A stretch of DNA of 64,000 nt from Escherichia phage EO1. Under the pieces are notes generated by a model. That model saw only the letters and a list, made by a program, of their open reading frames with translations. It ran no database searches and was not told the origin of the DNA. Each line of letters starts with the position of its first letter. Position 1 is the stretch's first letter. A program made the translations under genes and the position numbers. Positions 6,211 through 10,037 of this stretch are shown piece after piece. The stretch is taken from the sequence record OQ223305.1; one strand, written 5' to 3'.

Positions 6211-6526
6211 TATTCGTCCGGTCGATGAGACCGGTCTTTCAGAAAAAGAACTTTCAATTAAGAAAGAAAAGGATGAAATAGCAAAGCTTCTTGATCGTCA
6301 AGAAAATGGATTTATTATTGAAAAGATGGTAGAAGAATTTGGAATGAGTTATCTTGAAGCTACGACAGCATTCTTGGAAGAAAACTCTATTCCTGAAACT
6401 CAATTTGCTAAATTTATTCCTTCGGGTATAATTGAAAAAATTCAGTCAGAAGCTATTGACGAAAATCTTTTACGTCCTTCTGTTGTTCGTTGTGAAAAAA
6501 CTAATACATTAGATTTTCTGCTATGA
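6188..6526 (+). CDS. 33: Late transcription co-activator gp33
   Basis: 112 aa from the ATG at 6188 (MTQFSLNDIRP...); overlaps dsbA 3' end and gene 59 start (ATGA). Confidence 0.85.
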   Translation: MTQFSLNDIRPVDETGLSEKELSIKKEKDEIAKLLDRQENGFIIEKMVEEFGMSYLEATTAFLEENSIPETQFAKFIPSGIIEKIQSEAIDENLLRPSVVRCEKTNTLDFLL

Positions 6527-7176
6527 TTAAACTCCGCATGCCTGCTGGTGGTGAAAGATATATTGATGGTAAATCAGTTTATAAATTATACTTAATGATA
6601 AAACAGCATATGAATGGAAAGTATGATGTTATTAAGTATAATTGGTGCATGCGGGTGTCTGATGCCGCTTATCAAAAGCGAAGGGATAAGTATTTTTTCC
6701 AGAAGTTATCAGAAAAATATAAATTAAAGGAACTTGCTTTAATCTTTATAAGTAATTTGGTTGCTAACCAAGATGCTTGGATTGGTGACATCTCTGACGC
6801 TGATGCACTTGTGTTTTATCGTGAATATATCGGACGCTTAAAGCAAATTAAATTTAAGTTTGAAGAAGATATTCGCAATATTTACTATTTTAGTAAAAAA
6901 GTTGAAGTTTCTGCTTTTAAAGAAATCTTTGAGTATAATCCAAAAGTTCAATCAAGTTATATTTTTAAACTACTTCAATCGAATATAATTTCGTTTGAGA
7001 CGTTTATCTTGCTTGATTCGTTTTTAAATATAATTGATAAACATGATGAACAGACTGATAATTTAGTCTGGAATAATTATTCTATAAAGTTAAAGGCTTA
7101 TAGAAAAATTTTAAATATTGATTCACAGAAAGCTAAAAATGTTTTCATTGAAACTGTGAAATCTTGTAAGTATTGA
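6523..7176 (+). CDS. 59: Helicase loader gp59
   Basis: 217 aa, same length and position as T4 gp59. Confidence 0.9.
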   Translation: MIKLRMPAGGERYIDGKSVYKLYLMIKQHMNGKYDVIKYNWCMRVSDAAYQKRRDKYFFQKLSEKYKLKELALIFISNLVANQDAWIGDISDADALVFYREYIGRLKQIKFKFEEDIRNIYYFSKKVEVSAFKEIFEYNPKVQSSYIFKLLQSNIISFETFILLDSFLNIIDKHDEQTDNLVWNNYSIKLKAYRKILNIDSQKAKNVFIETVKSCKY

Positions 7177-7177
7177 T

Positions 7178-7810
7178 ATGAATATAGTATATTGGTTTAC
7201 ATTTGAAGACCGTGTCAAAAATAAGACTCCACCATACTACTATATCGGTAGTAAATTAAATTGCTCATTTGAGAACGGAATAATATATGACTCTTCCGGA
7301 AAGGAATACTGGAGCTCATGTAAACAAAAAAGATTTTTGAATGCGCTAATGCTTCAAAAACCGAGCGTTAAAATAATTCAAATTGATGATGACTTGGATG
7401 TTATTGAAGCAGAACGAAAATACCAACTTGAAGTAAATGCCAGAGATAATCCAGACTATTTTAATCTGGTATATGCTGGTGGTGGATTTGGTGTGAGTGG
7501 TGAAACTCATCCAGCCAAAGACCCGGAAGTTAGAGAGCATATGAGATTGGCTAATTATATGAACCGTGACGATTTTAGACCTTGGAAAACATCACGAGCT
7601 AATATAGAGTCTTGGAAATTATCTCATATTGCTTACGAGAATTATGTGTTATTATTATCCTCTAATCTGTACGGTAAAACTCCTGGATGGCGAAGAGTTA
7701 AAGGTAATATAAATATAACTGATACAACTGCTAAATCGATGGTAAAGTATTTCAACTCAGGTTGGATACCTCTCGAAGACCCAGAGTATTGCAAATTATG
7801 CCAGCTATGA
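7178..7810 (+). CDS. segG: GIY-YIG family homing endonuclease, SegG-like by position
   Basis: N-terminal IVYWFTF...YYYIGS fits a GIY-YIG variant; sits between 59 and 32 where T4 carries segG. Confidence 0.65.
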   Translation: MNIVYWFTFEDRVKNKTPPYYYIGSKLNCSFENGIIYDSSGKEYWSSCKQKRFLNALMLQKPSVKIIQIDDDLDVIEAERKYQLEVNARDNPDYFNLVYAGGGFGVSGETHPAKDPEVREHMRLANYMNRDDFRPWKTSRANIESWKLSHIAYENYVLLLSSNLYGKTPGWRRVKGNINITDTTAKSMVKYFNSGWIPLEDPEYCKLCQL

Positions 7811-7864
7811 GGTAAAGTGTCATAGCACCAACTGTTAATTAAATTAAGTTAAAAAGGAAATAAA
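7800..7864 (+). promoter_or_regulatory. Gene 32 translational operator (upstream hairpin/pseudoknot plus UUAAA-rich unstructured leader)
   Basis: gctatga(7804-7810)/tcatagc(7820-7826) stem followed by ttaattaaattaagttaaaaagg immediately before the gene 32 ATG. Confidence 0.65.
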
Positions 7865-8797
7865 ATGTTTAAACGTAAATCTACTGCTGAACTTGCTGCA
7901 CAAATGGCTAAACTGAATGGCAATAAAGGTTTTTCTTCTGAAGATAAAGGCGAGTGGAAACTGAAACTCGATAATGCGGGTAACGGTCAAGCAGTAATTC
8001 GTTTTCTTCCGTCTAAAAATGATGAACAAGCACCATTCGCAATTCTTGTAAATCACGGTTTCAAGAAAAATGGTAAATGGTATATTGAAACATGTTCATC
8101 TACCCACGGTGATTACGATTCTTGTCCAGTATGTCAGTACATCAGTAAAAATGATTTATACAACACTGACAATAAAGAGTACGGTCTTGTTAAACGTAAA
8201 ACTTCTTACTGGGCTAACATTCTTGTAGTAAAAGACCCAGCTGCTCCAGAAAATGAAGGTAAAGTATTTAAATACCGTTTCGGTAAGAAAATCTGGGATA
8301 AAATCAATGCAATGATTGCAGTTGATGTTGAAATGGGTGAAACTCCGGTTGATGTAACTTGTCCGTGGGAAGGTGCTAACTTTGTACTGAAAGTTAAACA
8401 AGTTTCTGGTTTTAGTAACTACGACGAATCTAAATTCCTGAATCAATCTGCGATTCCAAACATTGATGATGAATCTTTCCAGAAAGAACTGTTCGAACAA
8501 ATGGTTGACCTTTCTGAAATGACTTCTAAAGATAAATTCAAATCGTTTGAAGAACTGAGCACTAAGTTCAGTCAAGTTATGGGAACTGCTGCTATGGGCG
8601 GTGCCGCAGCAACTGCCGCTAAGAAAGCTGATAAAGTTGCTGATGATTTGGATGCATTCAATGTTGATGACTTCAAAACAAAAACTGAAGATGATTTTAT
8701 GAGCTCAAGCTCTGGCAGTTCATCTGGTGCTGATGACACGGACCTCCTTGTCCTTCCATGGTACTATACAACTATCGGCAATACTGCTGATGATTAA
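7865..8797 (+). CDS. 32: Single-stranded DNA binding protein gp32, with divergent C-terminus
   Basis: N-terminal and core sequence match remembered T4 gp32; ORF is 310 aa versus 301 and ends ...[22 protein letters not shown]. Confidence 0.9.
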
Positions 8798-8810
8798 AGA
8801 GGAAAATAAT

Positions 8811-9041
8811 ATGGCTAAAGTTGATATTGACATCGTTGATTTTGAATATATTGAAGAGATTATTCGTAATCGTTATCCTGAACTTAGTATCACAAGTATT
8901 CATGATGATCCCAATTATTGCAATTTTTCTATTGTCATTGAAGGTCCTCTTGAAGACCTCACCCGCTTTATGGCTAATGAATATTGTGATGGCATGGATT
9001 CTGAAGACGCAGAATTTTACATGGGACTGATTGAACAATAA
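8811..9041 (+). CDS. Hypothetical small acidic protein (frd.3 position)
   Basis: ATG at 8811 with AGAGGA RBS; 76 aa. Confidence 0.6.
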
Positions 9042-9087
9042 TTATCAAGGGGCTATTTGATAGCCCCGTTAAAATGAGGAAATCAAA

Positions 9088-9474
9088 GTGGAAGTTGGAA
9101 AAACTTATATCATTAACCCTTTATTTAAAAATGACTTTGCTAACGAGTGCCGTTGCAATGTAATGATGCTAAATTTAATAGAGAAGCACGGACCTAGTTT
9201 TGTTGTAGATGAAATGGAAAGTGATGATTGTGCTGGTGAATGTGTGGTACGTGTAACTATGGAAGATGGTACTGAATACATGGCGGGTGGCCCACTTGAG
9301 ACGTATTTTGAGATTTACTCTGAAGAATTCAAATACTTTACTGAGGTAACTTTAGAAAAGCCTCAATCCGCTAATGAAGGTATAGTTTCTGGCGTAACAA
9401 AAATTCACTGCATTGTTGACGAAAACAATGTAGATGAAATCATTGAACTTTTGCGAAAAACTTTTAAGGCCTAA
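9088..9474 (+). CDS. Hypothetical protein (frd.2 position), GTG start
   Basis: 128 aa ORF, GAGGA RBS 7 nt upstream of GTG. Confidence 0.55.
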   Translation: MEVGKTYIINPLFKNDFANECRCNVMMLNLIEKHGPSFVVDEMESDDCAGECVVRVTMEDGTEYMAGGPLETYFEIYSEEFKYFTEVTLEKPQSANEGIVSGVTKIHCIVDENNVDEIIELLRKTFKA

Positions 9475-9475
9475 T

Positions 9476-9736
9476 ATGACTAAAGATGATTTCCTGGATG
9501 CGGTAGAAAAAGCTAGTGAGAAATTTGAAGTGATGGGTGTACGGGTCCATAAAGACAGAAATTACGGACTCGATATTCAAACGTATTCGTTATGGCTTGT
9601 GGGTGAACACAGTCTTGTAACCAGTTTAGTTATGGGTGTCGATACCTATCCTCTATTGGTTAAGTTCAGAAGTATGGAAAAGGCTACTAAAGAAATGATT
9701 AAGCTTGGTAAGTGGCTCGATAAAATTCAAAAATAA
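9476..9736 (+). CDS. Hypothetical protein
   Basis: ORF from ATG 9476 immediately after preceding stop (coupled); start uncertain. Confidence 0.45.
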   Translation: MTKDDFLDAVEKASEKFEVMGVRVHKDRNYGLDIQTYSLWLVGEHSLVTSLVMGVDTYPLLVKFRSMEKATKEMIKLGKWLDKIQK

Positions 9737-9739
9737 TTG

Positions 9740-9768
9740 TTTACAACAGGGTAGTAGTGTGATACTAT
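9740..9768 (+). promoter_or_regulatory. Early promoter (TTTACA, 17 nt, TGaTACTAT)
   Basis: GTTTACA at 9739-9745, extended -10 at 9760-9768; inverted repeat 9749-9756/9766-9773 brackets the -10. Confidence 0.55.
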
Positions 9769-9794
9769 TACCCTATCAACTTGAGGAGAATAAA

Positions 9795-10037
9795 ATGAGA
9801 TTACAACGCCAGAGCATCAAAGATTCAGAAGTTAGAGGTAAATGGTATTTTAATATCATCGGTAAAGATTCTGAACTCATTGAAAAAGCTGAACATCTTT
9901 TACGTGATATGGGATGGGAAGATGAATGCGATGGATGTCCTCTTTATGAAGACGGAGAAAGCGCAGGATTCTGGATTTATCATTCTGACGTCGAGCAGTT
10001 TAAAGCTGATTGGAAAATTGTGAAAAAGTCTATTTGA
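9795..10037 (+). CDS. Hypothetical protein
   Basis: ATG 9795 preceded by GAGGAG RBS; 80 aa. Confidence 0.55.
   Translation: MRLQRQSIKDSEVRGKWYFNIIGKDSELIEKAEHLLRDMGWEDECDGCPLYEDGESAGFWIYHSDVEQFKADWKIVKKSI

Follow-up and report, generated by a model that had tools for sequence, protein, structure and literature searches.

How a phage comes to carry a gene 32 without the conserved acidic end of its product is the question raised by this locus. The gp32 protein is a textbook example of a protein that binds single-stranded DNA (ssDNA), and its acidic C-domain is seen as a recruiting hub for the replication and recombination machinery. In the stretch of DNA analysed here (64,000 nt, hereafter the window), a preliminary description made from the letters alone had noticed that the conserved C-terminus of gp32 is replaced within 8735–8797 in a protein of 310 aa, had held that a simple frameshift does not account for the change, and had proposed that it either alters autoregulation and protein recruitment or marks an engineered or recombinant junction. 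The best explanation, together with the consequences proposed for the downstream genes, is probably a natural deletion of 105 bp at the gene 32 3' end of a natural T4-like phage (Tequatrovirus), after which translation continues across the spacer and extended −10 of the frd.3 promoter and across the leader of this gene until it meets a TAA, giving gp32(1–293) plus 17 unrelated residues. Judging from the sequences of the window and of its relatives, the allele appears to be real and compatible with growth.

Gene 32 and the New End of Gp32

The window belongs to a Tequatrovirus and is about 96% identical to its best public relatives over 25 kb. The core OB-fold of its gp32 is matched by Pfam PF08804 at residues 39–239 (E=4.3e-66), the gp32 of PDB 8gme aligns across residues 1–294 (E=9e-194), and PDB 1gpc also matches. 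A residue check finds the LAST motif of N-terminal cooperativity, KRKST, at residues 3–7 and an internal KRKTS at 110–114, all four Zn ligands (H64, C77, C87, and C90) at their T4 numbering, and V258, L262, and F265 of the Dda-binding helix, which is kept; the peptide 248–270 of the Dda complex (PDB 8s9i) aligns with the protein as well, and the Ser-rich linker and ADDTD are retained within codons 1–293. The replacement of the conserved C-terminus in a 310-aa product is confirmed, as the protein is colinear with T4 gp32 through D293 and then continues with 17 new residues. The canonical C-terminus is ADDTDLDDLLNDL, i.e., ADDTD-LDDLLNDL, in PDB 8gme (301 aa), phage 132, and JLBYU31, in agreement with the length of 301 aa and the ending DLDDLLNDL given for T4 gp32 in the preliminary description. 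The tip motif D-L-D-[DE]-L-L-x-x-[LMF] is absent from the window protein, which has the 17-residue tail instead, and the net charge of the C-domain (from residue 252 to the end) is −9 vs −10 in the canonical form. A protein search for the exact 310-aa sequence gave no match on record; we regard the product as a hitherto undescribed natural form of a familiar protein rather than as a novel system.

Among the 120 closest homologues of gp32, with identities as low as about 60%, 114 terminate in the tip motif; the remaining six comprise fragments and artificial constructs, a truncated ORF, and a gp32::Frd.3 fusion. Since gp32 representatives at 35–50% identity also mostly have an acidic run followed by an amphipathic end, e.g., DDLSYFxxLA, the window has lost the best conserved element of the C-domain. 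Some distant homologues at about 40% identity (P0145, P0218, P0234, and P0248) end in DD[DE]VPF, like the bacterial SSB tip DDDIPF. A looser pattern, consisting of an acidic run plus hydrophobic residues, was considered as a sign of tip mimicry and dropped because the new tails match it too, so that it cannot discriminate. To our knowledge, none of the partners of T4 gp32 has been assigned to its eight terminal residues.

Table 1. Features of the gene 59–frd.3 region in window coordinates.
Feature	Position	Strand	Evidence or remark
Gene 59, upstream of gene 32	6523–7176		Profile matches
segG-like homing endonuclease gene, 210 aa	7178–7810	+	PHROG 7504, E=8e-134
Gene 32 (gp32, ssDNA-binding protein), 310-aa variant	7865–8797	+	ORF list; Pfam; PDB matches
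gp32 codons 1–293	7865–8743	+	Colinear with T4 gp32 through D293
ACGGACCT, putative left copy of a weak imperfect direct repeat	8738–8745	+	Read from the sequences
Deletion junction GGACC/T	8744/8745		Alignment; T at 8745 assignable to either side
Read-through tail, codons 294–310, in place of LDDLLNDL	8744–8794	+	ORF list; locus sequences
Remnant 14-nt frd.3 promoter spacer, TCCTTGTCCTTCCA	8745–8758	+	Same 14 nt as in JLBYU31
Extended −10 of the frd.3 early promoter, TG-G-TACTAT	8759–8767	+	Sequence comparison
New gene 32 stop, TAA	8795–8797	+	1 nt ahead of the frd.3 Shine-Dalgarno, 13 nt ahead of its ATG
frd.3 Shine-Dalgarno, GAGG	8799–8802	+	Sequence
frd.3 (76 aa)	8811–9041	+	Pfam PF05798, E=6e-38; PHROG 1764
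Stem-loop GGGGCTAT-TTG-ATAGCCCC directly after frd.3	9049–9067	+	Read from the sequence; without T tract

Anatomy of the Deletion

Alignment with the gene 32 region of T-even phages (phage 132 and 11B_SA_NWU), together with the sequences of 15 loci, reveals a clean deletion of 105 bp with respect to normal T-even phages. The missing segment normally sits between ...GACACGGACC and a 14-nt spacer ahead of TGGTACTATAC; of codon 294 only the first base is left, and the loss comprises what follows up to codon 301 (LDDLLNDL), the TAA that ends the gene, GGGGACC(C/T)CTAGAGGTCCCC, which forms the gene 32 terminator hairpin, the T run of this hairpin, AT-rich DNA, and, from the frd.3 early promoter, the −35 box (GTTTACA). 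GGACC and TGGTACTAT are separated by 14 nt in the window and by 117–123 nt in undeleted phages, and CGGACC now occupies the spot of the deleted −35 box (TTTACA). The frame of the tail crosses what is left of the promoter (spacer and extended −10) and then the leader of frd.3, and the equivalent of this DNA is non-coding in undeleted phages; the interval 8735–8797, indicated at first as divergent, correctly brackets both the junction and the new stop. In addition, a mismatch-tolerant search of the 64-kb window (up to three mismatches allowed) found no second copy of the lost coding end or of the terminator hairpin, so that a frameshift, already doubted in the preliminary description, and a second gene 32 end are both ruled out. 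The CCATGG site and the local richness in G+C that had also been noticed are present (8756–8761; 50% G+C over 8745–8762 vs 36% in the whole window) and correspond to the spacer and the extended −10 of the frd.3 promoter; the site lies 12 nt right of the junction, with its first half inside the 14-nt spacer.

The flanks of the junction have different closest relatives. The left flank is closest to 11B_SA_NWU (98.9% identity), while 800 nt of the right flank are 99.6% identical to the undeleted JLBYU31 and only 73–78% identical to the other deleted phages of the same spacer type; the switch from an 11B_SA_NWU-like to a JLBYU31-like sequence occurs between 8716 and 8748, on the junction, and right of the conserved gene 32 lies a region where phages are only 66–99% alike. 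The Gly288 codon, 18 nt left of the junction, is common to the window and the undeleted phage 132 and is not shared by the other deleted alleles. Upstream, the segG-like gene sits between gene 59 and gene 32, and its counterpart carries the name SegG in the annotation of IsaacDaniel and the label endonuclease in that of 11B_SA_NWU.

Promoter, Terminator, and frd Genes

In undeleted phages the interval between gene 32 and frd.3 contains a stem-loop, an AT-rich stretch, TTTACA-N17-TACTAT, a Shine-Dalgarno, and an ATG, which are the parts of a PeSL (promoter-early stem-loop) cassette of the T4/PST type, whose promoter consensus is TTTACW-N17-TAYWAT (PMC4122927). The PeSL stem-loop (GGGG...CCCC) and AT-rich stretch, present in undeleted relatives, are absent between the two genes in the window, and the −35 TTTACW at 17 nt from the −10 is deleted; the −10 TAYWAT, the Shine-Dalgarno, and the start codon (ATG at 8811) are all kept (Table 1). 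The non-coding parts removed by the deletion together make up a composite terminator-promoter of the PeSL type.

In the window frd.3 abuts gene 32 without a terminator between them, and frd.2 is next downstream. A promoter/terminator scan called neither a complete sigma-70-type promoter nor a terminator between gene 32 and frd.3, so that gene 32 transcripts should read into frd.3; they would probably extend into frd.2 and compensate for the crippled frd.3 promoter, and the translation of frd.3 may become coupled to that of gene 32. The stem-loop directly after frd.3, which was not scored as a terminator by the scan, is the next candidate 3' end, or first structure, for these putative read-through transcripts. 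Another promoter of the T4 early type is found at 9740–9768 (+), with TTTACA, 17 nt, and TACTAT preceded by TG, and has the same architecture as the promoter truncated at 8745–8767. An Rfam scan of 7000–10000 returned nothing meaningful.

Occurrence of the Deletion in Public Genomes

Junction-specific searches of 50,697 phage records identified about nine other deleted phages (12 records), isolated independently of one another; seven countries and four named species, at the least, are represented among them. Four of them, namely 11B_SA_NWU (South Africa), SP21535 (China), Sfk20 (India), and TB004 (Malaysia), have the same 105-bp deletion and proteins of 310–311 aa. The other five encode gp32::Frd.3 fusions: in GEP001, CrRp10, phiC600P9, and Eco-B1.1 the deletion is 1 nt longer and the resulting frame shift leads to a 392-aa protein, while in IME537 a shorter deletion, limited to the tip and the hairpin, leads to a 402-aa protein. 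All the deleted alleles have the identical left end ...GACACGGACC, and their right end points are of three kinds, located 14, 13, and 43 nt before TGGTACTAT. The fusion phages share with the window this left end and the loss of LDDLLNDL, of the stop, and of the hairpin, and differ from it in the right end, shifted by 1 nt, or in the shorter deletion, by which the frame enters frd.3 to give 392–402 aa. The preliminary description had taken the same ending in close relatives as an argument against its reading, an argument that applies in part; a tail of the same kind is found in 11B_SA_NWU, SP21535, Sfk20, and TB004, so that the allele is a recurring natural one and not a one-off.

A census of the region found at least 80% of the 105-nt segment in 482 records and its flanks in 503–508, so roughly 2–5% are without the segment. 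The deleted variants of the other phages are each represented by one GenBank record, with no independent Logan or ENA assembly. Junction scans of IMG/VR and of JGI metagenomes gave no match, a result without weight as IMG/VR holds only one canonical T4-type gene 32 end, and a literature search turned up no paper that deals with gene 32 and frd.3 together or with naturally occurring variants of the gp32 tail.

The fusion ORFs are annotated simply as SSB (318–1496 in loci L010, L011, L012, and L013; 289–1497 in L008), and PHROG 1764, of "unknown function", is a profile of 391 positions of which Frd.3 matches only positions 317–391; this profile may have been built on gp32::Frd.3 fusions. Some undeleted phages have called ORFs that span the intergenic promoter and frd.3 and are labelled "ssDNA binding protein" (1138–1494 in L009 and 1547–1798 in L006), probably by transfer of the name from fusion proteins.

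Origin of the Deletion

The 14 nt right of the junction are of three unrelated types, TCCTTGTCCTTCCA-like (type A), TACAACAAGGACTG, and ACCAAAGCATACTG (types B and C), and for each there is an undeleted phage whose spacer is the same or almost the same: JLBYU31 for the TCCTTGTCCTTCCA-like type, pSs-1 for TACAACAAGGACTG, and T4_ev240 or IsaacDaniel for ACCAAAGCATACTG. Homologous exchange cannot set unrelated spacers directly against a fixed junction, and several independent deletions are therefore favoured. The comparison of these sequences, together with the mosaic flanks, points to several independent origins, i.e., to a deletion hot spot at the 3' end of gene 32; the deletion would arise repeatedly at this site, adjoining the terminator hairpin.

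Which property of the site could guide the deletion was considered from its repeats. Only 0–1 nt are shared at the join, which speaks against simple slippage between direct repeats. A gapped direct repeat, ACGG---ACCT vs ACGGTTTACAT, whose right copy would have ended the deleted segment in JLBYU31-type parents, is weak and found in some parents only, as several undeleted phages have ACAG or ATGG in place of ACGG. An inverted repeat, GGACCTGGATG vs CATCC(T/A)..GTCC, is found in two spacer types and sets both end points at the base of a predicted long stem around the terminator hairpin; with the A and B spacers the folding prediction gives such a long-range stem, with C it does not. Bypass at the base of the hairpin was dropped as a general mechanism, no stem being predicted for type C parents, and is kept only as a partial idea; neither the direct nor the inverted repeat is present in all the parental types. 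In all deletion types the left end interrupts a CCWGG site, which reads GGACC^TGG in undeleted phages and corresponds to 8742–8748 in the window. The left arm of the terminator hairpin repeats GGACC in direct orientation, and the right arm is complementary to it. The SegG homing endonuclease was rejected as the cause, since most deleted phages are without segG and its cleavage site lies elsewhere in gene 32; Liu et al. reportedly placed it in 2003 about 330 bp from the insertion site, in the 5' third of the gene. Spontaneous deletions seldom share their end points exactly unless there is real homology, which counts against a natural recurring deletion as the best explanation.

One ancient deletion allele could instead have spread by recombination, without any hot spot, the exchanges occurring at the junction as branch migration stalls at the 105-nt heterology. 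This possibility, considered somewhat unlikely, is in keeping with the left end ...GACACGGACC, identical even where the undeleted relative differs (ACAGACT in pSs-1 vs ACGGACC in Sfk20), with type A spacers that are only 1–3 nt apart, so that homologous exchange within them is conceivable, and with the very frequent recombination of T-even phages and the strong mosaicism of the frd region. However, about 10 of the 14 positions distinguish the B and C spacers from A, directly against the junction, where homologous exchange is excluded, and the three different right end points also oppose a single event; the window differs from the other type A alleles 18 nt left (the G288 codon) and 4 nt right of the junction, so that two crossovers within about 25 nt would be needed. 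Selection has also been considered as the reason of the recurrence, if the loss of the tip allows the escape from a defence sensing gp32 or ssDNA, or if the 105 bp contain a nuclease or CRISPR target. T4 gp32 activates AbpAB, from which the gene 32 missense mutant tsP7 escapes (PMC10732053), ssDNA that is presented by phage SSBs, T4 gp32 among them, elicits a response of DARNA (bioRxiv 10.64898/2026.02.22.705581), CRISPR escape of T4 through small minihomology deletions is reported (PMC8262927), and the alleles come from unrelated isolates of several countries. An adaptive loss is nevertheless unlikely: no paper was found tying the C-terminal tip of gp32 to any defence system, T7 gp2.5 without its C-terminal Phe still activates DARNA (bioRxiv 10.64898/2026.02.22.705581), the frequency is only about 2–5% of genomes, and selection alone leaves the nucleotide-identical end points unexplained. 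Defences triggered by gp32, such as AbpAB and DARNA, are a speculative selective reason for the loss. A low probability is likewise given to a combined view, in which a precise hot spot guided by structure or by an enzyme (always CC^TGG) would yield a standing pool of tail variants, gp32::Frd.3 fusions among them, favoured in some hosts, e.g., via the escape from SSB-sensing defence.

The collapse or skipping of the hairpin-containing interval in the source assembly might be suggested by the strong G+C hairpin and the long T runs of the missing segment, and by the lack of independent assemblies for the deleted variants of other phages. Such an artefact is very unlikely, because there is no repeat whose collapse could have misled an assembler, the end points having at most 1 nt in common, and the same junction class occurs in about nine genomes from different laboratories with three right ends; moreover, comparable T-even terminator hairpins elsewhere are not reported as deleted. 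As regards the engineered or recombinant junction of the preliminary description, the rearrangement is borne out by the 105-bp deletion and by the switch of closest relative at the junction, whereas a cloning scar with an NcoI site has a negligible probability. CCATGG, 12 nt right of the junction, is the only hint of it; the site and its surrounding bases are identical in the wild undeleted phages 132 and JLBYU31, and being native there it is not a scar, the junction does not lie at the NcoI site, no linker, tag, or vector sequence is present, and both sides are native T-even sequence.

Functional Implications and Significance

A natural deletion with a read-through tail would imply a change of function that can be estimated from two altered forms of T4 gp32. 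ΔPR201 is a viable T4 mutant with an in-frame 15-nt deletion that removes residues 292–296 (TDLDD), and its protein behaves in vitro between the wild type and gp32*I (PMC5892887); its specificity toward other proteins is changed, while autogenous control in vivo is unaffected (PMC535899). Both this protein and gp32 1–295 bind ssDNA about 3-fold and dsDNA 1.5–2-fold more tightly and find their sites 4–6 times faster (for gp32 1–295 vs the wild type, Kss is about 3x, Kds 1.5–2x, and ka about 6x), effects that are far smaller than those of gp32*I, which lacks the whole C-domain (PMC5892887). As for the partners, Dda binds gp32 at residues 248–270, residues 271–301 are disordered in the structure, and 281–301 fall outside the peptide binding tests (PMC11551737).

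By analogy with these proteins, the window gp32 should keep cooperative ssDNA binding and the function of the Dda-binding helix. The published data on ΔPR201 and gp32 1–295 lead to the prediction of a partial relief of the C-domain autoinhibition, or "closed" form, with about 3-fold tighter ssDNA binding and faster association, and whatever partner docking uses the DLDDLLxxL tip would be lost. The damage to autoregulation and recruitment first proposed was probably overstated, considering the intact Dda helix, the normal autoregulation of ΔPR201, and the roughly 3-fold effect seen with 1–295. A fitness cost would be expected from the loss of a motif so conserved, by analogy with the C-terminal Phe of T7 gp2.5, and this speaks against the deletion allele as the best explanation.

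The relevance of the locus lies in the repeated loss, in viable phages, of the most conserved tail motif of an essential protein, which suggests that the gp32 tip is not essential under the conditions of isolation. Plaque-forming phages without the tip, or with the tip site fused to Frd.3, are ready material for the study of tip function, and since the same nucleotide recurs as an end point, the locus lends itself to the study of how homology-poor deletions form beside a terminator-promoter cassette, where the core genome borders on the variable one. From the point of view of annotation, GenBank entries for "SSB" of 310–402 aa, and apparently one PHROG profile too, silently contain promoter or Frd.3 sequence.

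Comparison with Known Systems

T7 gp2.5 (...DDF), E. coli SSB (...DDDIPF), and T4 gp32 are alike in having an acidic disordered tail with a short hydrophobic end motif, and in these tails partner docking is combined with competition with ssDNA for the binding cleft. Removal of the C-terminal Phe of T7 gp2.5 is lethal to T7. The protein without this residue does not interact with T7 DNA polymerase (bioRxiv 10.64898/2026.02.22.705581). T4 gp32 differs from the other SSBs in that no partner is known to use its last eight residues, the binding site of Dda being at 248–270.

PeSL cassettes (Arbiol 2010; Comeau 2014) adjoin indels and module exchanges, and the PeSL site of the window is similarly a boundary between core and variable genome with a mosaic breakpoint. 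In contrast, the documented PeSL events are homologous exchanges between two copies, whereas the deletion of the window takes place inside a single PeSL and extends into protein-coding DNA of an essential gene.

Among the altered forms of gp32, the nearest biochemically characterised protein is gp32 1–295, which like the window protein is without the last tip residues; unlike it, gp32 1–295 was made in vitro, has no added tail, and keeps L294 and D295. ΔPR201 resembles the window in having a small C-domain deletion at the same spot, overlapping the 293/294 junction, with the loss of three negative charges, and its deletion lies between two GATGAC direct repeats according to the mutagenesis primer sequence (PMC5892887). 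ΔPR201 still ends in LLNDL and has its stop, terminator, and promoter in place, whereas in the window the whole tip is lost together with regulatory DNA and 17 foreign residues are gained.
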